From Chloroflexota bacterium (lineage in GTDB: Bacteria; Chloroflexota; Dehalococcoidia; GIF9; UBA5629), in the NCBI GenBank assembly GCA_016875975.1, contig VGOF01000001.1:1-27128 (forward strand): DNA of 27,128 bases, in the 5' to 3' direction. This document shows, one piece after another, positions 1-17,971 of the stretch. The notes below the pieces were generated by a model. It was given only the letters and a program-made list of their open reading frames with translations, did no database searches and was not told the origin of the DNA. How positions within the stretch are numbered: the stretch's first letter is position 1; the number at the start of each line of letters is the position of its first letter. The translations under genes were made by a program, and so were the position numbers.

Positions 1-312
1 CCCAAGAACATCGAACTCGTCGAACCATTGGACTTTCTCGCTTTCCTCCAGCTCGAGAGCAATGCCCGACTGCTCCTCACAGACTCCGGAGGAGTTCAAG
101 AAGAAGCTTGCATCCTGAAAGTTCCCTGTGTTACCTTAAGAGACAATACCGAAAGACCTGAAACCATAAACGTTGGCGCCAATGTCCTGGCAGGAGCAAC
201 ACCCAACAAAATATTGGAATGCACTAGGCTTATGCTCCAGCGTAGCACCAAGTGGAAGAATCCCTTCGGTGACGGCAAGGCTGGCCAGAGGATTGTTGAA
301 ATAGTGACTTGA
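1..312 (+). CDS. wecB: UDP-N-acetylglucosamine 2-epimerase (non-hydrolysing), C-terminal part; 5' truncated by window edge
   Basis: Frame is open from base 1 (PKNIELVEPLDFLAFLQLE...). Contains the hallmark TDSGGVQEEA...VPCVTLRDNTERPE and NPFGDGKA motifs. Confidence 0.93.
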   Translation, partial: PKNIELVEPLDFLAFLQLESNARLLLTDSGGVQEEACILKVPCVTLRDNTERPETINVGANVLAGATPNKILECTRLMLQRSTKWKNPFGDGKAGQRIVEIVT

Positions 313-322
313 ACGTTGAACG
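309..322 (+). repeat. Heptamer array A (2 units)
   Basis: ttgaacg ttgaacg. Contains the wecB stop TGA at 310-312. Short, so supported mainly by similarity to the other arrays. Confidence 0.55.
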
Positions 323-337
323 CACAAGGAGAACAGT

Positions 338-1261
338 ATGCCTAAAATCTTGGTAACCGGAGGCAAAGGATTCATCGGTTCCAACCTTGTTCCCGAACTC
401 CGAAACAGAGGCCACGAAGTATGGGTATGCGACCTGGGCCAATCTGAAGGCCCGAACTATATCCGCTGCGACGTCAGCAAGTACCGGCAACTCGAGCGTA
501 TCTTCGAGCAACACAAGTTCAACTACGTCTACCACCTGGCAGCAGAATATGGCCGTTGGAACGGTGAAGACTATTACGAGAACCTCTGGCTGACAAACGT
601 GGTAGGCACCAAAAACTTGATCCGCATCCAGGAACAGAAGAAATTCCGCATGATTTTCTTCTCCAGCGCTGAGGTCTACGGCGACTATGATGGCGCAATG
701 AGCGAAGACACCATGGACAAGATACCCATCAAACAGATGAACGACTACGCCATGACTAAGTGGGTCGGCGAGCTTCAAGTTTTAAACTCAGCAGCCATGG
801 TTGGTACCGAGGCTGTCAGAGTGAGGCCAGTCAATGCCTATGGCCCACATGAACATTACAGCCCCTACCGCGGCGTGATACCAGCTTTCATCTACAAAGC
901 ACTGCATAATGAACCCTACACCGTCTATCTGGGACACAAGCGCATCTTCGATTACGTTGAGGACACCTGCTGCACCTTCGCCAACATCATTGATAACTTC
1001 AAGCCCGGCGAAGTATACAACATAGGCGGCAAAGAGGAATGGGAACACGATATAAAGTATGTCTCGGATCTGATATTAAAGAACCTGGGTAAATCAGACG
1101 CCAAGGTGACCTATAAGGAAGCTGAGCCTTTCACTACCCGCTTCAAGCACATGGACTTCTCCAAATCCAGAAGAGACCTGAAGCACGACCCGAAGATTCC
1201 GTTGGAGGAAGGAATCCCCAAAACTATTGAGTGGATGCGCAAAACCTACGGGTTTAAGTAG
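338..1261 (+). CDS. NAD-dependent epimerase/dehydratase (extended SDR)
   Basis: GGKGFIG Rossmann motif, SSAEVYG, catalytic YAMTK (YxxxK), NAYGP. SD aaggag upstream. Confidence 0.92.
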   Translation: MPKILVTGGKGFIGSNLVPELRNRGHEVWVCDLGQSEGPNYIRCDVSKYRQLERIFEQHKFNYVYHLAAEYGRWNGEDYYENLWLTNVVGTKNLIRIQEQKKFRMIFFSSAEVYGDYDGAMSEDTMDKIPIKQMNDYAMTKWVGELQVLNSAAMVGTEAVRVRPVNAYGPHEHYSPYRGVIPAFIYKALHNEPYTVYLGHKRIFDYVEDTCCTFANIIDNFKPGEVYNIGGKEEWEHDIKYVSDLILKNLGKSDAKVTYKEAEPFTTRFKHMDFSKSRRDLKHDPKIPLEEGIPKTIEWMRKTYGFK

Positions 1262-1267
1262 CCCAAG

Positions 1268-1302
1268 CCAAACCCCGAACTTCAAACTCTGAACTTCGAA
1301 CT
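1268..1302 (+). repeat. Heptamer array B (5 units)
   Basis: ccaaacc ccgaact tcaaact ctgaact tcgaact, strict 7-bp period, filling most of the intergenic gap. Confidence 0.85.
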
Positions 1303-1305
1303 CTT

Positions 1306-2505
1306 ATGAGAATTCTTATCGTCCAAGAGAGCGATTGGCTCAAACGGGGACCCCATCAGCAACATCAATTGGCGGACCGCCTTTCACTCAAAGGACACCA
1401 GATTCGGGTAATCGATTATGAAATTCTATGGCGGGAGCAGACCAAAAAAGAGCTATTCTCCAGACGGCAGGTATTCCAGGATATAGGGAAAATCAATCCC
1501 CAGGCGAAGGTGACTGTCATTCGCCCAGGCATTATCAAAATACCCATTCTAGACTACGTCTCGCTCGTTTTCACCCACCAGCGAGAAATCGCACGTCAAA
1601 TTGCCGAGTTCCAGCCTGATGTCGTAGTTAGCTTTGGCATATTGAACAATTACCTGGCGCTGAGGGCAGCAAAGAAACACAAAATCCCCTTTATTTACTA
1701 CTGGATAGATGTGCTACACCATCTCATTCCCATAAAACCCCTACAATTCATCGGGCAGTCCCTGGAAAGCAGGGCACTAAGACAGGCAGATAGAGTGCTG
1801 ACCATCAACGACAAGCTCAGAGACTATGTCCTATCTGCAGGAGCAACAGATAAAAAAACACGCGTAATCAGAGCAGGAATTGACATAGAGCAATTCAAGC
1901 CTTCAGGCAAATCCAGTGAAATCAGACAAACGTACAGGCTCAGAGAAAACGATGTCGTCTTGTTCTTCATGGGCTGGCTCTATCACTTCTCCGGCTTGAA
2001 AGAGGTGGCTCTTGAGCTGGCCAAGACGGATGACCCAAGATTGAAATTGCTCATCGTGGGCGAAGGCGATGCCTTTGAAGACCTGAAAAGGATACAGGAG
2101 AAACACAACCTTCAAGACCGGGTTATCCTCACCGGGCAGAAGCCCTACACAGAGATGCCTGCCTTTATCGAAGCTTCAGATATATGCCTCCTGCCAGCCT
2201 ATCCACAGGAGAAGGTAATGCAAGACATCGTGCCCATAAAACTGTACGAATACCTGGCTATGGAGAAACCGGTCATAGCTACCAGACTTCCCGGCATTAT
2301 GCAAGAGTTCGGCGAAGATAACGGTGTGGTCTACATCAATGAACCTGAAGATACCATCGTTAAAGCCAAAAGCTTGGCTGAAAGTGATAAAATGGGGGAA
2401 TTCGGCATCAAGGCCAGGAAATTTGTCGAGAAATACAGTTGGAATAAACTAACCGCCGAATTCGAAGAAATTCTAAGAGAGGCCACAGGCAGTTCGAAGT
2501 TCTAG
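1306..2505 (+). CDS. Glycosyltransferase family 4 (GT-B)
   Basis: C-terminal GT4 signatures (LLIVGEG, PIKLYEYLAMEKPVIAT, YSWNKLT) and N-terminal MRILIV. Confidence 0.92.
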   Translation: MRILIVQESDWLKRGPHQQHQLADRLSLKGHQIRVIDYEILWREQTKKELFSRRQVFQDIGKINPQAKVTVIRPGIIKIPILDYVSLVFTHQREIARQIAEFQPDVVVSFGILNNYLALRAAKKHKIPFIYYWIDVLHHLIPIKPLQFIGQSLESRALRQADRVLTINDKLRDYVLSAGATDKKTRVIRAGIDIEQFKPSGKSSEIRQTYRLRENDVVLFFMGWLYHFSGLKEVALELAKTDDPRLKLLIVGEGDAFEDLKRIQEKHNLQDRVILTGQKPYTEMPAFIEASDICLLPAYPQEKVMQDIVPIKLYEYLAMEKPVIATRLPGIMQEFGEDNGVVYINEPEDTIVKAKSLAESDKMGEFGIKARKFVEKYSWNKLTAEFEEILREATGSSKF

Positions 2506-2527
2506 ATTCAAGGTTATAAAAGTTCAA
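2491..2527 (-). repeat. Heptamer array C, inverted orientation (4 in-phase units plus 1)
   Basis: + strand agttcga agttcta gattcaa ggttata aa agttcaa. The reverse complement of 2491-2518 is tataacc ttgaatc tagaact tcgaact. Contains the GT4 stop TAG at 2503-2505. Confidence 0.85.
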
Positions 2528-2547
2528 TACATATTTGTTATCGCATA

Positions 2548-2937
2548 ATGAAAATCGACAGGTTTGAAGACATCGAGGCTTGGAAAGAAGCGCGAAATTT
2601 GGTCAACACGATTTACAACATTTCAAATGAAGGGCTATTTCCAAAAGATTTCAGTCTGAAGAATCAAATCCGTGGGGCTTCGGTTTCCGTAATGTCCAAC
2701 ATCGCCGAGGGATTTGACAGAGGAACAAATAGGGAATTCACACAATTCCTTATAGTAGCTAGAGCTTCCGCTTCCGAAGTAAAAAGCCAATTATATATAG
2801 CCTTGGATCGCAATTATATAGATAAAAACGAGTTTGACACAGTATACCAACAAGCAACGAAAGTCATCAGCATTATCGATGGATTCATCCGTTATTTGAA
2901 AAAACCCAGAACCTGTAACGTAGAACATAGAACGTAG
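2548..2937 (+). CDS. Four helix bundle protein (23S rRNA intervening-sequence protein / S23 / Avd-like family)
   Basis: 129 aa with the family pattern FEDIEAWKEA...FPKDFSLKNQIRGASVSVMSNIAEGFDR...FLIVARASASEVKSQLYIALDRNYI. The last ~10 codons are encoded by array D. Confidence 0.92.
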   Translation: MKIDRFEDIEAWKEARNLVNTIYNISNEGLFPKDFSLKNQIRGASVSVMSNIAEGFDRGTNREFTQFLIVARASASEVKSQLYIALDRNYIDKNEFDTVYQQATKVISIIDGFIRYLKKPRTCNVEHRT

Positions 2938-2955
2938 AACTTCTGACTTTGAACA
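2907..2955 (+). repeat. Heptamer array D (7 units)
   Basis: cagaacc tgtaacg tagaaca tagaacg tagaact tctgact ttgaaca. Overlaps the 3' end and stop of the four-helix-bundle gene. Confidence 0.9.
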
Positions 2956-2967
2956 GAAAGGAGTAAC

Positions 2968-3966
2968 ATGGAACAATATATGAGAGAGTATAAGGGGAAG
3001 AATGTCCTGATCACCGGCGGCGCAGGTTGCATTGGCAGCAACCTGACCAAAGCCCTCATCAAGGCTGAAACCGGGAAGGTAATCGTCCTTGATGACCTGT
3101 CGGCGGCGGAGAAATGGAATGTTCCGGTTGACCCATCCGTCCTTTTCGTAGAGGGCAGCGTGGTAGATGATGAGGTATTAAAAAGGGTCTTTGCCATCAA
3201 GCTGGACTATGTCTTCCACCTGGCCGCTCATTTTGCCAACCAGAATTCCGTGGATAACCCGGAGACAGACCTCGAAGTCAACGGTCTGGGCACATTGAGA
3301 GTGCTGGAATATGCCAATCTGACCAAGGTGAAAAGGTTTGTCTTCGCCTCATCAGGATGTTCAGTGTACGGCAGCCAGGCACCACTGCCACTCAAAGAAG
3401 ATTTCGTCTCCCTGCACCTTGATACCCCCTACCAGATAACAAAACTCCTGGGCGAGCTGTATTGCAATTTCTACCAGAACTATTATGGCCTCCCCGTAGC
3501 TATTGCTCGCTACTTCAACGTCTACGGCCCAGGGGAAATACCCGGCGCTTACCGCAATGTCATCCCCAACTTCATGTACTGGGCATTGCACCAGATGCCG
3601 CTTCCCATCACCGGCACTGGTGAAGAGACCAGGGACTTCACCTTTGTCGAAGATATAGTTGACGGCACGCTTCGTTGCGGTGTGGTTCCAGAAGCTGTTG
3701 GACAGGCGTTCAACCTGGCATCAGAGACAGAAACAAAGGTAGTAGACATCGCCAGTATGGTGAACGAACTCACTGGCAACCTTGGCGGAGTAAAATTCCT
3801 GGCACGCCGCGACTGGGACAAGATCACCAAGAGAAGAGCTTCCATTCAAAAGGCACACAAGGTTTTAGGATATCAGCCAAAAACAAAAATGAAGGATGGG
3901 ATTAATAAGGTATACAATTGGATTGTGGAAAACCGCGAGAAAATAGAGGCATGCGCCAAGTTCTAA
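2968..3966 (+). CDS. NAD-dependent epimerase/dehydratase (extended SDR)
   Basis: TGGAGCIG, FASSGCSVYG, PYQITK (YxxxK), RYFNVYGPGE, TRDFTFV. SD aaggag upstream. Confidence 0.92.
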   Translation: MEQYMREYKGKNVLITGGAGCIGSNLTKALIKAETGKVIVLDDLSAAEKWNVPVDPSVLFVEGSVVDDEVLKRVFAIKLDYVFHLAAHFANQNSVDNPETDLEVNGLGTLRVLEYANLTKVKRFVFASSGCSVYGSQAPLPLKEDFVSLHLDTPYQITKLLGELYCNFYQNYYGLPVAIARYFNVYGPGEIPGAYRNVIPNFMYWALHQMPLPITGTGEETRDFTFVEDIVDGTLRCGVVPEAVGQAFNLASETETKVVDIASMVNELTGNLGGVKFLARRDWDKITKRRASIQKAHKVLGYQPKTKMKDGINKVYNWIVENREKIEACAKF

Positions 3967-3983
3967 TTACCGGCAGGGAAACA

Positions 3984-4046
3984 CTGGACGCAGAACTTAG
4001 AACGCAGAAAATAGAACTTAGAATCTTGAACATAGAACTTCGAACT
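3984..4046 (+). repeat. Heptamer array E (9 units)
   Basis: ctggacg cagaact tagaacg cagaaaa tagaact tagaatc ttgaaca tagaact tcgaact, strict 7-bp period. Confidence 0.92.
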
Positions 4047-4077
4047 CTCATGCCCCAGATTTTAGCTTGTTAGGAGA

Positions 4078-5160
4078 ATGATGTCATCTAAACTTAATGT
4101 TGCCATAGTGGGGTGTGGTGCTGTAGCTGATAAACGCCATATCCCCAGTTTTGCCAGATTGAAAGACAAGGTCGCTGTGCGGGCTGTATGTGACAAAAAT
4201 GAGGAACTGGCAAAACTGGTCGCCTTGAGACATGGAATTCCTAGGGTCTTTGTTAGCCAGGCAGAGATGCTCAAGGCTGAAGAAATTGACATAGTTGACG
4301 TCTGCACCCCACCTCAGATACACGCTCCCATAGCGGTCGAGGCGCTTGAAGCTGGCTGCCATGTGCTGATGGAAAAACCCATGGCGCTTACTACTGCTGA
4401 TTGTGACAAGATGATAGAGGCGGCGATAAAGAACAATCGTAAGCTCTGTATTGTTCACAACGTGCTCTTTCATCCCCCGCTTATCAAAGCCAGAGAGATG
4501 GTCAAAGCGGGAGCCATAGGCGACTTCAGAGGCATGAGAATCCTGTTATCAGACCCCAAGGATGAAATGATAATGCGCCAGGACTACTGGATACACAAGC
4601 TGCCCGGTGGATTGATTGGTGAAACTGGTCCTCATCCTGTCTATATCTCCCTGGCTTTTCTGGATAAGGTTAATAACGTAGAAGTATTTGCTAAAAATTA
4701 TCTGGTGCATCCCTGGGCACCATTTGATGAGTTCAGGCTCGAACTCGATGCTGATAACGGAATGAGTTCGGTGGCTATCTCTTATTCCGGTGAGCGGTAT
4801 GCTGCAGAGGTAGAGATATTCGGCTCAGAAGGTGCTCTATACATAGACCTCCAGAGCATGCTGCTGGTGAGACACGGTGTAAAGAAAACTCTAAACTCTG
4901 CTAAGTTGGTCTCAACATCTCTCGGCACTGTAACGCAGATTATCGGCGGCCTCATAGCCAACGGATTTAAGACAATCACCGGCCAGTTCAGAGTGGGACA
5001 TGAAAAAATAGTGGAGCTATTTGTCGATAGCATTATTCAAGATACCACTCCGCCTGTTACAGGTGAAGAAGGACGGGAGGTTATAAGGCTAATGGAGATG
5101 ATAGTTGACAGGCTTTATAACAAATACGGTCGACCTCCAGCATCTGAACCTGGAACTTAG
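4078..5160 (+). CDS. Gfo/Idh/MocA family oxidoreductase
   Basis: VAIVGCGAVA N-terminus, HVLMEKPMA motif, DIVDVCTPPQIH. SD aggag upstream. Confidence 0.92.
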   Translation: MMSSKLNVAIVGCGAVADKRHIPSFARLKDKVAVRAVCDKNEELAKLVALRHGIPRVFVSQAEMLKAEEIDIVDVCTPPQIHAPIAVEALEAGCHVLMEKPMALTTADCDKMIEAAIKNNRKLCIVHNVLFHPPLIKAREMVKAGAIGDFRGMRILLSDPKDEMIMRQDYWIHKLPGGLIGETGPHPVYISLAFLDKVNNVEVFAKNYLVHPWAPFDEFRLELDADNGMSSVAISYSGERYAAEVEIFGSEGALYIDLQSMLLVRHGVKKTLNSAKLVSTSLGTVTQIIGGLIANGFKTITGQFRVGHEKIVELFVDSIIQDTTPPVTGEEGREVIRLMEMIVDRLYNKYGRPPASEPGT

Positions 5161-5171
5161 AACGTAGCACT
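5144..5171 (+). repeat. Heptamer array F (4 units)
   Basis: ctgaacc tggaact tagaacg tagcact. Contains the oxidoreductase stop TAG at 5158-5160 and abuts the next GTG start. Confidence 0.8.
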
Positions 5172-5999
5172 GTGAAACAGATGCCACAAAAAGAAAAGGA
5201 ATCGGTCCGGCAGTTCTGGGACGCAGTCCCCTGTGGCACCGGCGATGTTAGCATAAAGCCTGGGACACTTGAATACTTTGAGGCTATTTCGGAAAGACGT
5301 AACAAGCTGGAGCCCTTTATCGCTGACTATGCCCGATTTGAAAAATGGGTGGGTAAAAGGGTGCTGGAGGTGGGATGTGGTGCCGGTAGCGACCTGTTGC
5401 GCTTTGCCAGAGCAGGTGCCCGTGTCGCCGGTATGGACTTATCGCCGCGCTCGGCTGCGCTGGCAAAGAGCAGGCTGTGCCTTTATAACTGCCAGGGCGG
5501 TGTGCTCATAGCCGATGCCGAACAATTGCCCTTTAAAAATCGTTCGTTTGACCTCGTTTACTCCTGGGGAGTCCTGCACCATACGCCCGATACTGAACAA
5601 GCCATTAAAGAAATATACCGTGTTACCAGTCCGGGTGGTGAGATTTGTATTATGCTCTACCACAGGCACTCTCTGGTTTCTCTACAAATGTACCTGCGCT
5701 ATGGTCTCTTCGTTTTCAAGCCCCTGAGGAGCTTGAAAGATATACTTGCCAGTCACCATGAGAGCCCGGGCACAAAAGCATATACCGTAACCGAGGCTCG
5801 GCAGATGTTCTCGGCATTTAGAGACGTGAAAATTAAGGTTTGCCTTACTCCTTATGACCTCCGCTACCGGAGAGACGGCTACCTTCCGTCATGGGTTGGC
5901 AACTTCATCCCGAAGCGTCTTGGCTGGTTCATAATCATCATGGGGCGGAAGTCCTCGCAGGAGGTTAAAGTAAAATGCCTGGAATATGCGGCGCTGTAG
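5172..5999 (+). CDS. Class I SAM-dependent methyltransferase (start may be ATG 5181)
   Basis: VLEVGCGAG motif I and FDLVYSWGVLHHTPD...EIYRV..PGG. Confidence 0.9.
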   Translation: MKQMPQKEKESVRQFWDAVPCGTGDVSIKPGTLEYFEAISERRNKLEPFIADYARFEKWVGKRVLEVGCGAGSDLLRFARAGARVAGMDLSPRSAALAKSRLCLYNCQGGVLIADAEQLPFKNRSFDLVYSWGVLHHTPDTEQAIKEIYRVTSPGGEICIMLYHRHSLVSLQMYLRYGLFVFKPLRSLKDILASHHESPGTKAYTVTEARQMFSAFRDVKIKVCLTPYDLRYRRDGYLPSWVGNFIPKRLGWFIIIMGRKSSQEVKVKCLEYAAL

Positions 6000-7837
6000 G
6001 AATCAAGAACGAGGGACTATTAAAGAGAATGGCGTCGCTCATGGAGCACAGGGGGGAGATAATCGAGGTCTCCGCCAATAATGGCGCCACGGTTGCGGTA
6101 ATCCGCCGCACCCATGAACCCGGACTGCATAACCGGGGAGCCACGTCTATCGCCCTCGACCATGATATTTATGCCATGGGCAGCCGGCTGGTTGAAGACG
6201 ATTCACAGATTTACCCGCACCTCGAAACCGTCGCTTCAATTAAAGAGGCTGTAAAAGCCCTCAGGGGGAGCTTCGCTCTCGCCATTGTCAACGCGGGCAG
6301 CCGGCAGGCAAAGCTGACTTTAGCCCGTGACATATACGGCGCCCGGTCCATGTATTATCTGCAGACCCGCCAGGCGCTCTTCTTTGCTTCTGAGATGAAA
6401 TGTTTCCTGGCTCTTGAGGAATTTAAGCCGGAAATCAATCCCGAAGCGCTGTATCACTATCTGAGTTGCGGTTTTATATCTGATAAGCGGACTTTGCTCA
6501 AGCATGTTTACAAGGTTCTGCCGGGAGAGCTGGTGGAGTTTGAAGATGGAGAAGTTAGACGCTGTAAATACTGGCACCCGATGCCCTGTCAGCAGACGCC
6601 ATTAGATATAGACCACTGGATTCAGTCCACCTGGGATAACCTCAAAGACGCCGCCACCACCCAATTGCCCGGGAAAGAAGGTAAGATAGGGGTGGCGCTT
6701 AGCGGGGGGCTGGACTCATCTTTGATCGCCGCTACTCTAAAACACGTCAGCCGTGACTCCAAAATCATAAACTTCTCCCTGGACTACGGTGATGGTGATA
6801 GTGCCGAGCTGGACATGGCGATGAAGATATCCGGATACCTGGATATGGATTGCCGCATCGTCAAACTGCATGCAGAGAAAATCGTAGCCGACCTGGAGCG
6901 ACTGCAATGGCTCTATGATGAACCTCTGATAAAGTTCACCTTCATACCCACCTATTATCTTATGAACGCCGCCAGCGAGGAGGTGAAGACACTGTTCACC
7001 GGCGATGGCGGAGACGAGCTATTTATCGGCTACAGAAATGACTACTGGCAAGACCCTCTGATAATCAGCTTCTTCTCGAAGCTGGGAGCAATCAGGAAGC
7101 CAGCCCTGAAAGCGGGCAAGTGCCTGGCTACGCCACTGGCTAACTGGACTGGCTCAAAAACTCTATCGTTAGCCACAGAATTTTTCACCAGGGAGCATGC
7201 CAGCCATCCGGAATGGCAATACAGGATCGCCTCTCGGGTTTTTCATCCCTATTTCCCGGAGGAGGACCTGCCGAGATTGCTCAATAACAGCAGTTCACAG
7301 GGAATAACCGATACCACCGTCGAAGCCATCAACACATCAAAAGCCCACAGTAACATCGAGAAAATATCTTATGTCATGGTTAGCGGTGAACTCCCCAACG
7401 ACCTGCTCAGATTGGACAAATCTGCGGCGGCTACCGGACTGAAAATAAGGTCGCCGCTCCTCGACCCGCATATGACGAATTTTGCCCTGAGTATCCCCAT
7501 ATCACTTAGGCACCGTCATGGAACAACCAAGCACTTGCTCAGGCAATTAATCAAAAACTATGACTTGCTCCCGCCGGAGGTAGCTGCCGGTAAGCAGAAG
7601 GCAGGGTTAACTGCACCCATACATCAGTGGCTGACCGAGAGCCCATCGCGGGACTACTTCGATGCCCTGCTAAAGTCCAACACCAGCATTCCCAACCTGA
7701 ATATGTCCTACGTACATAAGTTCTACCCCCCAAAAACATACACCCAGACCTTGAAAGCCTGGGCTTTAATAGGCGTGCTTTTGTGGCTGAAAACTCTCAC
7801 TGCCAAATCCGGAAGGCATTTTCATGACACCGACTAA
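5975..7837 (+). CDS. asnB: Asparagine synthase-like (AsnB family) amidoligase, probably glycan-modifying
   Basis: LARDIYGARSMYY, FASEMK, ATP-binding LSGGLDSS, FTGDGGDELFIGY, RSPLLD. The N-terminus is MPGICG rather than MCG. Confidence 0.85.
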   Translation: MPGICGAVGIKNEGLLKRMASLMEHRGEIIEVSANNGATVAVIRRTHEPGLHNRGATSIALDHDIYAMGSRLVEDDSQIYPHLETVASIKEAVKALRGSFALAIVNAGSRQAKLTLARDIYGARSMYYLQTRQALFFASEMKCFLALEEFKPEINPEALYHYLSCGFISDKRTLLKHVYKVLPGELVEFEDGEVRRCKYWHPMPCQQTPLDIDHWIQSTWDNLKDAATTQLPGKEGKIGVALSGGLDSSLIAATLKHVSRDSKIINFSLDYGDGDSAELDMAMKISGYLDMDCRIVKLHAEKIVADLERLQWLYDEPLIKFTFIPTYYLMNAASEEVKTLFTGDGGDELFIGYRNDYWQDPLIISFFSKLGAIRKPALKAGKCLATPLANWTGSKTLSLATEFFTREHASHPEWQYRIASRVFHPYFPEEDLPRLLNNSSSQGITDTTVEAINTSKAHSNIEKISYVMVSGELPNDLLRLDKSAAATGLKIRSPLLDPHMTNFALSIPISLRHRHGTTKHLLRQLIKNYDLLPPEVAAGKQKAGLTAPIHQWLTESPSRDYFDALLKSNTSIPNLNMSYVHKFYPPKTYTQTLKAWALIGVLLWLKTLTAKSGRHFHDTD

Positions 7838-7851
7838 CGATTGGCCAATCG
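7838..7851. other. Perfect 14-bp palindrome at the convergent junction
   Basis: cgattggccaatcg begins immediately after the asnB-like stop. Function unknown. Confidence 0.4.
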
Positions 7852-7946
7852 GGAAGCCACCGGCACTTATTACAAATTAATATGCTATGAACTGAAATTC
7901 TACTATCGCGGCAGGTTAGCCACAGATTTCTATACCCACTGCCTCA

Positions 7947-9302
7947 TCAACTTGGAGGCGTAGCAAATTCGGCAGCCTCGCTGTTAGCGCCTCTTATTCG
8001 CCTGTAGATATAATCCAGAGCAATGGCACTGAAAATGATGTACCCTAGGCTTCCTGGCACTATGCTTTTGTACGACGCAGCAAAGATAAACATGTGAACT
8101 ACGGAAAAATATGCTGGCACTGTCGCCACCAAAATCAATGGTCTCCAATCCCTCCTCATAGCCCAGATGGCAACTATGCCAAGTAATATGGGCACAATAG
8201 CGACCAGTATTCCAAGCCATCTGCAAAATGTGGCGCTGAGACTACTCCCTGTAAGCGGAGAAATAAAGTCAGAAAGATACCGTCCAAGATGGCTAGAGTA
8301 ACCCAGTGTGTTAGGAAAGCGCCTGACCAAAACGCTCAGCCACCATCCAGGATATTCCCTGATAGTATTCAACACCTCTCCCCGAAAATATGCCTCTGTT
8401 TCCGGCGACCATGGTTTGATATCCTCACCCAGCGCCTCCCTTGCCAGATTGGTAGCATGTGCATCGGAAAGTACCGCCCCTACAGGGTTCTCGAATTCGC
8501 CAAAGCCTTCCCAAATGCCCTGCCACAAGGTGGAACGCATAAAAACAAGCGCGCCGGTAACATGATAGTTTCTTACCATCCAGGGAGATACAACCAGCAC
8601 CAGCATTGCCATCATAACAGCAGTTACCTTGGCAACATTCAGTACACATTCCCTGAAATTTGTCTTCCGAAGGCTATATATGAACAAACCCAGGCCAAAC
8701 ATCAAGGGCAAGAGCAGTATAGTCGGCTGAAAATAACAACCTACACCAGCAAAGAGACCCGATAGGATATAGAACTTCATTGCCCCCGTTCGCGCCGCCT
8801 TTACAAAGAAGTATAGGGAACTCAACGTGATTAATGGCATCAAAGCATCGTGAAGTGGCCATATAGATAGGTATGCGATGGGGAGCCAAATCGCGTATAG
8901 GAAGGCTGCAATTAAACCAGTTCTCCTGCTAAATAACTCTTTTCCAATCAAAAACATCAGCAGACAGCCAAAAGAATCGATGACTGCTTGAATCACTCGG
9001 AGATAAATATCGTTGTATTCACCAAACGCCCAGTATGTCCCAGCCAACAATATGCTGGTCCCCGGGGGAAGATCATAAAATGGTTCACCATCCCCAGTAA
9101 CAAATCCTCGCTTTTCACACAGGTTTCTTGCCACCTCATCAAACTGACTTGTCATCCCACTATAAGGCGTCAACATGAAATGACTCATCATACCGGTATC
9201 AAGATTGGGAATGCAGGTATAACTTAGCATACCCACCCTAAGACTAAGAGCTAGGATAAGAACAAGTATCAAAAATTTATGTGATTTGATTCTGCGAATC
9301 AT
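7947..9302 (-). CDS. GT-C membrane glycosyltransferase (PMT_2/ArnT-like, family 39-like)
   Basis: Many hydrophobic helices. Family-like segments FDEVARNL, DLPPG, RVIQAV, LIAAFLYA, PWMVRNY. SD gaggag upstream. Confidence 0.8.
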   Translation of the reverse strand: MIRRIKSHKFLILVLILALSLRVGMLSYTCIPNLDTGMMSHFMLTPYSGMTSQFDEVARNLCEKRGFVTGDGEPFYDLPPGTSILLAGTYWAFGEYNDIYLRVIQAVIDSFGCLLMFLIGKELFSRRTGLIAAFLYAIWLPIAYLSIWPLHDALMPLITLSSLYFFVKAARTGAMKFYILSGLFAGVGCYFQPTILLLPLMFGLGLFIYSLRKTNFRECVLNVAKVTAVMMAMLVLVVSPWMVRNYHVTGALVFMRSTLWQGIWEGFGEFENPVGAVLSDAHATNLAREALGEDIKPWSPETEAYFRGEVLNTIREYPGWWLSVLVRRFPNTLGYSSHLGRYLSDFISPLTGSSLSATFCRWLGILVAIVPILLGIVAIWAMRRDWRPLILVATVPAYFSVVHMFIFAASYKSIVPGSLGYIIFSAIALDYIYRRIRGANSEAAEFATPPS

Positions 9303-9398
9303 GTCTTCATCTCCTCGCCAGCACTACGGGAAGTCCGAAACTCCTTTTGCAAAAACACCGCAAGACCTGCTGAATTATCGGATGAAGGCCCAGTCAAT

Positions 9399-10670
9399 TT
9401 AATCACGCACAATCATTGGTGTTGGCAATGGAATAATAAAACCGCCGCGGAACCCTTTATTCCGAAGTTTGGGCATTAATTCGTCTGCAATATGCCAGGA
9501 AAGTAGGAGCGCATACTCAGGTTGGTCGGCAAAGAGGCAGGACTCCTCCACAACTGGTATCAGTGTGCCAGGTATATATTTCCCAATTTTGTGCGACCCC
9601 TTGACTTCCAGCACATAGTCAAGCATCCCATCATCCAGGCCAACGTAATTGATAAGCGTGCTGGCACGCGATGGTGCACTGATACCATAGATGTGTTGTC
9701 CCTTTTCCTTGATAGCCAGAAGCAGAGAGTGCAACTGCAATTTAGAGACAACTACGCACTCTTTGAATTTGAGCAAATTATCCTTGCTCAACACAAACGG
9801 AGCTTCTCCCTCCAGAAGGTCCGCTACTGTCGGTTGGACAGCGTAATCCCCTGCCCTTGCGGCATAGACACGGATAGAACCCCCATGAGTAGGAATCCGC
9901 TTGGCATAGAAAATCTCCAACCCATGCTTTTCCAAAAGATACTTCAGGCTATGTAAAGAATAGTACCGCAAATGCTCGTGGTAAATTGTGTCATACTGCA
10001 AGGTCTCAAGTAACGGTAGCAAATAGTGCGACTCAGAAACAAACACACCGCCCGGTTTAAGTAACTGCATAATCAATGCCACCACGCCATTGACATCTTC
10101 GATGTGCGCGAACACATTGGTTGCAGTAACCAGCTTTGCCTGCCCATATTGTGCAATAACCGTGGAAACAACTTCTGGGGTGAAATAGTCAATTATCGTT
10201 GGAATGCCACGCTCTATTGCGATTTTACCGATTTCCTCGGGAGTAATCCCTAAAACTCGATGATTGTCTTTGAAATTACTTAACAGATTCCCATCGTTAG
10301 AACCGATGTCCACAGCCAAGTCTTGCGGCCCCAAATCCATCGTTGCTCTGACTTCGCGATAGAGTTCTGCAAAGTTCTCGCAAAGAATCTTTGTGGTGCT
10401 GCTAGTGTAGGGATATTCTGGAGGAAAGATAACCTTTGGGTCAACCACCAAGCCTAGTTGCACCAGATGGCATTGGGAACAGTAAAGCAATTGTGCAGGA
10501 TAGCTAGGTTGTTCACGTGGCTTCTCACCGATAGGATTCATCCGATTGACCGGCGGAAGGTAGCCCAAGAAAAGTATTGGCTCAAGATCAGCATTGCGGC
10601 ACACCTGACAGAATTCAATGACAACACTGGAGCCAGTCCCAGCTGCTAGTTCGGGTAGATTTGACATCAC
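9399..10670 (-). CDS. NDP-sugar C-methyltransferase family (Zn-binding N-domain, class I MTase, C-methyltransferase C-domain)
   Basis: CQVC and CSQC Zn ligands, YPYTS, VDIGSNDG, TNVFAH, DTIYHEHLRYYS, THGGSIR, KIGKYIPGT. Confidence 0.88.
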   Translation of the reverse strand: MMSNLPELAAGTGSSVVIEFCQVCRNADLEPILFLGYLPPVNRMNPIGEKPREQPSYPAQLLYCSQCHLVQLGLVVDPKVIFPPEYPYTSSTTKILCENFAELYREVRATMDLGPQDLAVDIGSNDGNLLSNFKDNHRVLGITPEEIGKIAIERGIPTIIDYFTPEVVSTVIAQYGQAKLVTATNVFAHIEDVNGVVALIMQLLKPGGVFVSESHYLLPLLETLQYDTIYHEHLRYYSLHSLKYLLEKHGLEIFYAKRIPTHGGSIRVYAARAGDYAVQPTVADLLEGEAPFVLSKDNLLKFKECVVVSKLQLHSLLLAIKEKGQHIYGISAPSRASTLINYVGLDDGMLDYVLEVKGSHKIGKYIPGTLIPVVEESCLFADQPEYALLLSWHIADELMPKLRNKGFRGGFIIPLPTPMIVRD

Positions 10671-15457: not shown

Positions 15458-17971
15458 ATGGATATACACCAATCCCTCAGGGCAATAGGGCAACGAATCC
15501 AAATGAAATCGCCTAACAATTGGGAAATAAGAGACTGCATAGCCTTATGCAGCAGCGTATTATTAACGGCTCTGGCAATAATGGGGTTGTCCGCTCTGGG
15601 TTTTGATATCCCAGTCCTCAGGCAAGTCGCTGGCTTCTTTTTCCTGACCTTCATTCCCGGCATCCTCATCCTCAGAATCCTCAGGATTCACAATATCCAC
15701 ATAATAGAAAGCCTGCTCTATTCGGTAGGACTGAGCCTGGCATTTGTCATTATAATGGGCGTAGTGGCTAACTTTGCCCTGCCACCTCTGGGCATCTCAA
15801 AACCTATTTCGCTGTTACCACTGTTACTGGTAATCACCCCCGCTTTCCTGCTGCTTTGTCTATTCGCCTATATACGGGATAAAGGCTTCCGCCCATCCAG
15901 CCAGAGCGATAAACAGGCTTCGGAATCAACCTGGCAAAATTTCCGTGCTGCTAACCCTGCTCCCTACCTGCTGGCTGCCCTGCTGCCTCTCCTCGCTATC
16001 CTGGGAGCCATCCTGATAAACGCCTACTATAACAATGCTCCGATATTCGCTCTCATATTCGTCATTGCCATCGTAATAGGACTGGCTGCCTTCAACAAAT
16101 TCATTCATCCCCGGGTTTATCCCATCATGATATTCATGATGGCACTGGCACTCCTGTATCAGACCACATTTATCTCCGACTATCTGGTAGGCAGCGACAT
16201 TCACATCGAACATTACGTCAGCAATCTAGTAGTAGAAGATGGCCACTGGCATGTTGACATTCCCGGAACTGGCGCTGTGAATTCATGTCTAAGCATCGTC
16301 ATATTGGCACCTATCTACTCGCTCATGCTGAATGTGGACATAGTCTGGCTATTCAAGATAATCTATCCCCTTTTCTTTTCCCTGGTACCTCTGGCACTCT
16401 TTCGTACCTTCAGCCTCCAAATGAAATCCCAGCATGCCTTTCTGGCTGTCGCCTTCTTCATCACCATGCCCATGTTTTTTATGGACATGCCACAGTTGGT
16501 CAGACAGCAAATATCTGAACTCTTCTTCGTCCTGGTGATACTGCTGATGATAGACCGTAAATTAACTTTGATACAGAGGACTACTTTGGTCCTTATCTTC
16601 GGCTGTGGTATAGTCGTCTCCTACTACGGATTAGGTACTGCCTATCCTATCGGTTATCTGGCTTTTGGTTCACTGGTGCTTATCGTTATTAAAAGCCGCC
16701 CCGGTCGAGCTCTGTGGCAATGGCTGATCGGAAAACATAACAGCCTACCCACTGACTTAACCTCAGCCGGAGCATTTAACAAAAAAGCCCTGGTCATCAC
16801 TGTTGTCGTCAGTCTAATTTTTATGTTTGCTTACTTCAGAGTCACCTCCGCAGGCTTAATGGGCCCCAGGATTTTTGGCGAGGTCGTGCATAGTGCAGCC
16901 GAACAAACAATTCAGGGTATTACTACACCAGCTACCACTACACCAGCTACCACTACACCAGCTACCACTACACCAGCTACCACTACACCAGCTACCACTA
17001 CACCAGCTACCACTACACCAGCTACCACTACACCAGCTACCACTACACCAACCCCACAAATTCCCGCCTTCGTTCAGAAGATAACTGCCATGTTTCCCTT
17101 TCTCAACCCCTTATCCAAAGAACCTTTATCTCAAACAGCCCTGGGCATTGATTTTTCCATAGCATCACCAGGAGGGAAAGCATGGCGAGTGTTCCAATAC
17201 CTCGTCGAGCTTTGCCTTATCATCGGCTTCTTCAGGCTCGTTTTCCGCCCCGGGACACTTGGTGAATTCAAGGCCGAATATCTATCACTGACCATAGTAA
17301 GCACCCTGATTTTACTCGGCATCTATATCCTCCCAACTACAGGTTGGGGCTTGGGCTCCGTCCGAATATGGCAAATCACCTTACTCCTAATGTCACCGCT
17401 ATTTATATTCGGTGGTGAAACCATCGCTCTCGGGATAGCCAAATTAACCAGCATATCCCGAAAGAGCTTGGCATCTTCCAAAATGAGATTTGATACTCGA
17501 AGTCTCACGTGGTGCCCAATAGTCTTTATATTAATACCCTACTTTATCTTCAACAGTGGAGCCATCTTCGAACTTAGCCGTAACCAGACTACCCGTTTTA
17601 TCGATATGCCCTATTCTATTGCGTTATCCAGCTACAGGCTGGACTTAAACACCGTTTTTACCAGGCAAGATACTACCGCCGCCGACTGGCTCTCCACTGT
17701 AGGCAGCCGCCCTCTCCGTACCGACATCCACGGCTGCCAGCTATTTTATAATTACAGAGCGGCTCAAAATGCTGGAGAGCTAGCCTCGTCCAGCTATATT
17801 TATTTAAGAACTTGGAATGCACGGACAAAGACGTGGACTGTCGGTACCGCTTATGCAGCGCGGCAAAGCGTCAGCTTCGATGATTTGGATAATCCCTGGC
17901 TTACACAAGCACTGGAAAGAGGTGACAAAATCTACAATAACGACGGGGCACAAATACTGTTACAGGAGTAA
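15458..17971 (+). CDS. DUF2206-family polytopic membrane protein (start may be ATG 15503)
   Basis: NWEI..., [28 protein letters not shown]...[65 protein letters not shown], all matching recalled DUF2206 patterns. Confidence 0.82.
16922..17050 (+). repeat. Perfect 15-bp tandem repeat, 8 full copies plus 9 bp, encoding (PATTT)x8
   Basis: The unit actacaccagctacc is repeated without mismatch, in frame within DUF2206. Confidence 0.98.

Follow-up and report, generated by a model that had tools for sequence, protein, structure and literature searches.

The window considered here is a stretch of 27,128 nucleotides (nt) from a Chloroflexota bacterium (GenBank assembly GCA_016875975.1, contig VGOF01000001.1), and represents contig C1 of a lake-water metagenome-assembled genome (MAG) of 1.75 Mb, which is divided over 313 contigs and is 81% complete. 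According to Pfam annotation, positions 1-7837 of the window hold a plus-strand glycan operon. Within this operon lies the element under study: a plus-strand gene (2548-2937, 129 aa) of the PF05635/TIGR02436 family (23S rRNA IVP/S23p/Avd-like four-helix bundle), enclosed by two arrays of degenerate 7-nt units that form an inverted repeat. An earlier note, made from the letters of the sequence, had proposed a four-helix-bundle (Avd/IVP-like) gene at this place. This assignment is upheld by a PF05635 match (E 2.2e-32) that spans profile positions 1-105 of 106 and scores 111.9 bits, where the cut-off is 33.8. Residues 7-117 of the protein are also homologous (E 2.4e-13) to XCC0516, a homopentameric member of solved structure whose PDB entry, 2GSC, has five chains.

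The two arrays that enclose the gene constitute the arms of a cassette. The 5' arm (2491-2527, plus strand) has about five GTTCNAR units, with G in excess of C, and was recognized as a minus-strand match to the pattern of the other arrays, while the 3' arm (2907-2955, plus strand) has about seven YNGAACN units, with C in excess of G, and was detected by Tandem Repeats Finder (TRF), pattern search and folding. Together they make a palindrome that brackets the PF05635 open reading frame (ORF) and covers two stop codons: the final codons and stop of the preceding glycosyltransferase gene lie within the 5' arm, and those of the IVP gene within the 3' arm. When the RNA of 2470-2975 is folded, 2491-2527 pairs with 2907-2950 in both the minimum free energy (MFE) and centroid structures, and the duplex of the arms only has a predicted energy of -29.7 kcal/mol (z -5.4 vs. 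shuffles).

Four solo arrays, all in plus-strand GAAC orientation, mark other junctions of the operon. A1 (309-322) is a minimal array, read directly from the sequence, of two TTGAACG units across the stop codon of a 2-epimerase gene, and shows weak pairing to the inverted arm (z -2.1). A2 (1268-1302; TRF and pattern search) has about five NNGAACT-type units that reach the ATG of the GT4 gene, an ATG without a Shine-Dalgarno sequence, and is complementary to the 5' arm with a dG of -24.3 (z -5.1). A5 (3984-4046; TRF and pattern search), with about nine units, is the longest (dG -38.4, z -8.3), and A6 (5144-5171; pattern search) has about four units across the junction between the oxidoreductase stop and the start of the methyltransferase gene (z -4.4). 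The single 5' arm is complementary to every GAAC array, and to A5 best, though this complementarity carries little functional weight. Allowing at most one mismatch, the pattern GAACNNNGAACNNNGAAC (GAAC-N3-GAAC-N3-GAAC) matches the window 14 times, all in 1277-5170, vs. 0.05 matches expected from shuffles, and TRF reports periods of 7, 14 or 21 at 1269-1304, 2917-2940 and 3992-4046. All six arrays reported by the earlier note were thus located, although the one at 309-322, having just two units, is weak alone. The note describes all six as approximately TAGAACT and had missed that the array at 2491-2527 runs in the opposite orientation, with GTTC units that are reverse-complementary to those of the other five. 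Its observation that the remaining ~22 kb lack arrays holds, as nine later intergenic gaps give no lag-7 signal; heptamer arrays are, however, abundant elsewhere in the genome.

The arrays also share strings that extend across their unit boundaries. A2 and A5 have in common the string GAACTTCGAACTCT-Y-ATG, i.e., 17 identical nt, one variable base, and then ATG, and a 14-nt string, TAGAACTTCGAACT, is common to A2, A5 and the 5' arm (with one mismatch in A2). These shared strings show an origin by copying as opposed to independent slippage.

The neighboring genes, all on the plus strand, are those of a surface-glycan pathway. The window opens with the 3' end of a UDP-GlcNAc 2-epimerase gene (1-312; PF02350, E 3.5e-34), the rest of which is on contig C55, and continues with an NAD-dependent epimerase/dehydratase gene (338-1261; PF01370, E 7e-46) and the GT4-family glycosyltransferase gene (1306-2505; PF00534/PF13439). 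Downstream of the cassette lie a second NAD-dependent epimerase gene (2968-3966; PF01370, E 2e-52), whose product is 75% identical to its counterpart in the relative G016 and 80% to that on the metagenome contig L113, a GFO/IDH/MocA oxidoreductase gene (4078-5160; PF01408, E 2.7e-28) with its final codons and stop within A6, and a class I SAM methyltransferase gene (5172-5999; PF08241), past which there are no arrays. An AsnB-like amidotransferase gene follows as the last of the operon. Contig C55 and window positions 1-127 overlap by 127 identical bases, which indicates that the locus extends upstream of the window. A GT2-like gene upstream of the 2-epimerase gene (C55, reverse strand) contains five in-frame tandem 9-nt units, about CAACAAACT, that encode a Q/T/P-rich stretch and may be another tolerated repeat insertion. 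Further along the window, a perfect 15-nt x 8.6 tandem repeat (16922-17050, TRF score 258) lies inside an 837-aa ORF (15458-17971).

The genome contains four good PF05635 genes, and each of them stands between inverted heptamer arrays with a unit of its own: GTTC/GAAC in the window, AGGCAAC/GTTGCCT on C92, GAGACT/AGTCTC on C55, and CCCAAAT/ATTTGGG on C144. The C55 cassette (reverse strand) belongs to the same glycan locus, ~1.6-2.0 kb upstream of window position 1, between a gene with a product ending in ...KSVTVK and the GT2-like gene. Among all 1316 ORFs of the genome, ranked by the alignment score of inverted repeats between their 5' and 3' flanks, the IVP genes take ranks 1, 3, 11 and 14, the window cassette being 14. 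Alignment scores and shuffle z-scores were used because raw RNAduplex energies of the flanks are dominated by G+C content, and these were dropped. The higher scores for inverted or direct flanks and for duplexes (ranks 5 to ~25 of 1316) also include two small stand-alone GIY-YIG genes (C28:10166-10453 and C61:4388-4777) and a third small ORF (C92:5252-5539). The flanks of these three small ORFs include a dispersed element, similar to repetitive extragenic palindromic (REP) sequences, with a core of about GTCATTGCGAGG ... GGCAATCTC, which is common in the genome.

Period 7 is the commonest tandem period reported by TRF in this genome (148 rows), and the lag-7 detector finds 118 arrays (76 mostly intergenic, in a genome that is 11% non-coding) vs. 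10 for lag 8. At 15/21 this detector misses degenerate arms, and a lack of signal from it is weak evidence of absence. The arrays comprise about 56 unit flavors, and their density rises 8.3-fold within 3 kb of IVP genes (P 2e-6). Of 115 arrays in the rest of the genome, 26 repeat the unit of some cassette arm, where 5.8 are expected, and 19 of these carry the unit of the C92 cassette. The GAAC flavor is nearly private to the present locus, which has five of the eight genome-wide clusters, with a sixth on C55. A separate metagenome contig holds a 34-nt stretch of the 3' arm (window 2908-2941) between other flanks, one of which resembles the 5' half of a tRNA gene. As this contig is not in the MAG, the GAAC flavor also occurs at a second, unbinned locus.

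The design of a PF05635 gene with its arms is not confined to this bacterium. A set of 80 homologous loci was assembled from species-representative genomes of Chloroflexota, Acidobacteriota, Nitrospirota, Bacteroidota, Planctomycetota, Verrucomicrobiota, Cyanobacteria, the candidate phyla radiation (CPR) and one archaeon, along with a replicate set of 80 independent metagenome contigs. Inverted flanks with a score of at least 12 (the background 95th percentile in the present genome being 11.5) were found at 59 of 76 scorable genome loci, and the replicate shows the same architecture at 40 of 67. The 7-bp periodicity that the earlier note had suggested looking for beside PF05635 genes does occur, concentrated within 100 nt of the ORF, in many phyla and with agreement from the metagenome replicate. 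Lag-7 arrays occupy the 100 nt adjoining the ORF at 32 of 78 loci upstream and 35 of 78 downstream, whereas nearly all other 100-nt bins out to 3 kb have them at 0-3 loci (the next downstream bin has 5). A minority of PF05635 loci have 8-nt units instead. At loci with both arms detected, the 5' and 3' units are reverse complements of each other, with at most two mismatches, in 31 of 33 cases among the genomes and 18 of 21 among the metagenomes. Polarity is likewise conserved: the 5' arm has G over C at 36 genome loci vs. 3 with the opposite bias (22 vs. 3 in the replicate), and the 3' arm has C over G at 40 vs. 9 (27 vs. 2). The duplex of the flanks has a median z of -2.2 over 77 loci, compared to -0.12 in displaced control windows. 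In these other genomes, arrays at a distance of over 150 nt from an IVP gene also share its arm unit beyond expectation (14 of 53 vs. 1.3 expected; replicate, 7 of 38 vs. 1.5), and some of these distal arrays are gene-less inverted pairs. These data support the design of gene plus arms as a general one across many phyla.

Comparison with relatives indicates how the arrays came to be in the operon. In two relatives at the family level, G016 and G011, the genes come in the same order, with neither arrays nor an IVP gene, and the junctions overlap or nearly abut (0-32 nt). The GT4 and epimerase genes overlap in both genomes, which constitutes an empty cassette site. The A1 junction is overlapping and has no spacer in G016 and in a third relative, G019; the A2 junction is an overlap or 4 nt in the relatives; and in G016 the A5 and A6 junctions are 15 and 32 nt, respectively, and repeat-free. 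Moreover, a GAAC-type array on C55 lies inside the 2-epimerase gene, where it adds 10 residues that the orthologs in G016 and G019 lack. From these tight, array-free junctions and the 10-residue insertion, together with the shared strings described above, the arrays are judged to be recent DNA-level insertions that are related by copying. The cassette on contig C92 likewise has a composite 3' arm of 55 nt, of which two further copies lie downstream in direct orientation. The arm units are unlike among the four cassettes of the genome, and the empty sites are too diverged for a target-site duplication to be read. No match to the locus was found in the same-genus genome G001.

At the cassette site itself, G019, a relative from the same taxonomic order, has a different insert. 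On its contig C24 (L105:3933-4320, L111:2481-3049), both junctions around the epimerase-332 gene hold an insert of 390-570 nt, which contains a small ORF and a palindromic repeat common to the two inserts, in place of an IVP cassette.

The arms themselves appear to be kept symmetrical as DNA. Compensation on the RNA strand would leave its mark in the mismatches between arms, but at 59 loci G-U mismatches on the sense strand number 75 and A-C mismatches 79, with no asymmetry at three stringencies. This lack of a G-U excess means that arm symmetry looks to be maintained at the DNA level.

One orthologous cassette has been found. Metagenome contig L113 has the same cassette before the same epimerase gene (80% aa identity), with a different upstream gene. 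Its arms keep the GTTC/GAAC flavor; the 3' arm differs by a 28-nt (4-unit) indel, being shorter in L113, while the 5' arm has ~33 extra nt relative to the window. The IVP genes of the window and L113 give a dN/dS of 0.16, from which it follows that the protein has been under selection. The L113 gene (L113:1588-1956) has an in-frame TAG at codon 12, which is TGG in the window. Synonymous divergence (pS) of the IVP gene between the two is 0.50, below the 0.79 of the adjacent epimerase gene, a value that is saturated. No array was found at the L113 junction after the epimerase gene, which fits the solo arrays of the window being younger than the cassette.

The interpretation that we favor, with moderate confidence, is that window 2491-2955 is a selfish cassette of the intervening sequence (IVS) type that resides outside rRNA, and that copies of its arms have spread locally. 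Its structural and evolutionary parts are matters of observation, as given above. Under this interpretation, an intact PF05635 gene, kept by purifying selection in the loop of a palindrome of inverted heptamer arrays, would have been inserted as DNA between a GT4 gene and an epimerase gene whose counterparts in relatives overlap. Five further GAAC arrays, at four junctions and in one surface loop of the 2-epimerase, would be paralogous copies or relics of the 3' arm. They would be recent insertions into junctions that were once tight and coupled in translation, and not regulatory sites of ancestral origin. The arms may serve as the cis sites of the element, with the IVP protein, a predicted ring-former, as the trans factor that binds the arrays and helps to maintain or copy them. 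Within the transcript of the operon, the arms could also pair into a stem and, by analogy with the Coxiella IVS, offer a site to RNase III, probably as a side effect.

Several observations weigh against the interpretation as a selfish cassette. The action of the protein on its own arms is something that we infer. Of all heptamer arrays of the genome, 91% are more than 3 kb from any recognized IVP gene, and 77% of the arrays elsewhere have units that are absent from the four assembled cassettes. The stem is weak (z -1.0) when computed over the full 90-nt flanks, though significant on the arms by themselves (z -5.4). Arm units do become more similar as protein identity rises, as the earlier note had anticipated (Spearman -0.21, permutation p 0.0005), but the correlation is weak and may be confounded by genome G+C content. 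A bias of flavor-matched solo arrays to the 3'-arm orientation (12:2) was not replicated (3:4) and has been rejected. Neither unit-number polymorphism nor an IVP-less variant was seen in four lake metagenomes, where contigs only were available and cannot show absence. Finally, the cassette has kept the same junction while the flanking gene diverged to 80% aa identity, and it is thus not highly mobile.

A bolder extension, which we regard as a possibility to be held tentatively, is that PF05635 ring proteins are flavor-specific readers of tandem heptamers that maintain and locally copy their own arm arrays. IVP cassettes would in that case be the source of the unexplained heptamer simple sequence repeats (SSRs) of bacteria (STRR, GGGAATC, TAACTGA), and the present operon would show the process under way, the arm having been copied to four further junctions and into the interior of a gene.

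Four alternatives compete with the selfish-cassette interpretation. In the first, the palindrome acts mainly as RNA: a stem cut by RNase III frees the IVP mRNA and separates the flanking glycan mRNAs, and the solo arrays are alternative pairing partners. The Coxiella IVS is indeed cut by RNase III at the first tandem heptamer 5' of its S23p ORF (PMC4990558), and the present genome has two RNase III genes (C20, C80). The pairing of the arms in MFE and centroid folds, the complementarity of the 5' arm to every array, with A5 best, and the median flank z of -2.2 vs. -0.12 in controls are all in keeping with such a role. On the other hand, the sense strand has no excess of G-U over A-C mismatches, the array within a coding gene and the gene-less arrays genome-wide favor an origin at the DNA level, and pairing across 1.5 kb of translated mRNA is not to be expected. 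An RNA role as the main one is therefore considered unlikely.

The RNase III genes lie in an assembly in which thioredoxin and PEBP genes are also near-duplicated, with near-identical flanks (C4:19255-19587 vs. C178:1414-1746; C44:3922-4494 vs. C180:321-893). The MAG may be a mix of two strains, and the near-duplicate genes are in this respect consistent with its contamination estimate of 6%.

In the second alternative, the arrays are ordinary slippage-prone heptamer SSRs, like STRR, and IVP genes insert into them or survive beside them without a functional link. Period 7 is over-represented across the genome, most arrays (91%) are far from IVP genes, the arms change by whole units, and a heptamer SSR excess has been reported for Xanthomonas, Nostoc, Geobacter and Beggiatoaceae with IVP unmentioned (PMC4692102, PMC2700814, PMC4679880). 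However, arrays adjoin IVP ORFs on both sides, reverse-complementary and with fixed polarity, in phyla that lack them in other intergenic regions; gene and both arms are jointly absent at empty sites; and the strings shared across unit boundaries show copying as opposed to independent slippage. We deem chance proximity of this kind slightly less probable again than the RNA role.

In the third, the direct-oriented arrays are recombination sites for the swapping of glycan gene cassettes between strains, which resembles the suggestion of the earlier note that they are cassette boundaries for gene shuffling. Two hints bear on it. In four lake metagenomes, the unitig graph has a branch and a loose end at 4023, inside A5, where depth falls from 35 to 17.7; the alternative continuation leads into a different downstream sequence, which is absent from this MAG. 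The branch is compatible with an array-bounded structural variant at the strain level or with a repeat-induced graph break. The other hint is L113, where the same cassette and downstream epimerase gene follow another upstream gene. Yet this is a single breakpoint in a type of graph (de Bruijn) that breaks at repeats anyway, the arrays are just 14-63 nt and degenerate, and no joints that skip whole genes between arrays were found in the four metagenomes. This renders exchange between arrays an improbable account.

The last is the proposal of the earlier note, by which an IVP ring reads heptamers in the operon mRNA, as the trp RNA-binding attenuation protein (TRAP) reads its repeats, and tunes translation or processing of glycan genes for the host; despite the arrays at stop/start junctions, the position of A2 at an ATG without a Shine-Dalgarno sequence, and the conservation of the protein (dN/dS 0.16), it is hardly credible, since gene and arrays are absent from the same operon in relatives (G016, G011, and G019 without the repeats, the array-free junctions covered being three), one array is in-frame within a coding sequence, L113 keeps the cassette with no array at the next junction, each IVP paralog carries its own arms wherever it is located, the mismatches show no G-U excess, and 91% of arrays lie far from IVP genes. 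What endures of that proposal is that protein and arrays form one system, in that arrays adjoin PF05635 ORFs in many phyla; a TRAP-like regulator of glycan genes is not supported.

To our knowledge, the S23p/IVP family has had no known function for ~30 years, and the bacterial heptamer excess is equally unexplained. The locus provides a testable connection between the two, with a conserved protein, defined arms, empty sites and an orthologous cassette. The insertions also matter for both annotation and expression: in a surface-glycan operon they undo the translational coupling of genes, contribute stop codons and shift Shine-Dalgarno sites away. They also fragment metagenome assemblies.

With regard to known systems, TRAP shares with the cassette the idea of an oligomeric ring that reads evenly spaced short repeats. 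The sites of TRAP are (G/U)AG triplets in the 5' leader of a fixed regulon, its fold is unrelated to that of PF05635, and the arrays of the window are recent insertions that travel with the gene. Avd, the accessory protein of diversity-generating retroelements (DGRs), is a basic pentamer that binds nucleic acid, and shares with PF05635 one Pfam superfamily of four-helix bundles. In contrast to a DGR, the window has no reverse transcriptase in the vicinity of the cassette: there is no RVT_1 match in the 81%-complete genome and no reverse transcriptase family among the ten ORFs of window 1-10670, which include all cassette neighbors, though template and variable (TR/VR) repeats were not searched for. 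Within the limits of a genome that is 81% complete, this excludes a DGR role. In agreement with the earlier note on the absence of an rRNA gene, the insertion lies between GT4 and epimerase genes and not in a 23S helix.

MITEs (miniature inverted-repeat transposable elements) and REP or bacterial interspersed mosaic elements (BIMEs) are, like the cassette, small palindromic intergenic insertions with more gene-less copies than gene-carrying ones. Unlike them, the cassettes have arms that differ within one genome and are internally periodic, and they encode neither a transposase nor a REP-associated tyrosine transposase (RAYT). The heptamer repeats known as STRR, reportedly described in cyanobacteria by Mazel et al. 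in 1990, belong to a class of tandem 7-nt repeats that the arrays resemble in form. Intergenic heptamer SSRs have also been described in Xanthomonas (GGGAATC) and Nostoc (GGGGA(C/T)T) (PMC4692102), in Beggiatoaceae (TAACTGA) (PMC4679880), and as heptanucleotide elements in Geobacter (PMC2700814). These are, as here, tandem 7-nt units that are mostly intergenic and near ORF ends, with some inverted pairs and some intragenic cases, and their length varies between relatives. Those reports link no protein gene to the repeats, whereas here and at the homologous loci inverted pairs bracket PF05635 genes, and the present genome has dozens of flavors, not one.

A literature search returned no description of a general PF05635-heptamer cassette beyond the heptamers of the Coxiella IVS, which are the closest published precedent. 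The Coxiella burnetii IVS has 2-3 tandem heptamers (GACAGAT) just 5' of the S23p ORF, in a copy number that varies between strains (PMC4990558). In the 23S rRNA IVSs of C. burnetii and Leptospira, an ORF of this protein family occupies the loop between terminal inverted repeats (PMC4990558), much as it does in the window cassette. The latter, however, lies between protein genes of a glycan operon and not in rRNA helix 25 or 45, and it has multi-unit heptamer arrays as both of its arms, with copies of one arm at neighboring junctions. Lastly, the ORF of the Coxiella IVS is decaying, whereas the IVP ORF of the window is under purifying selection.

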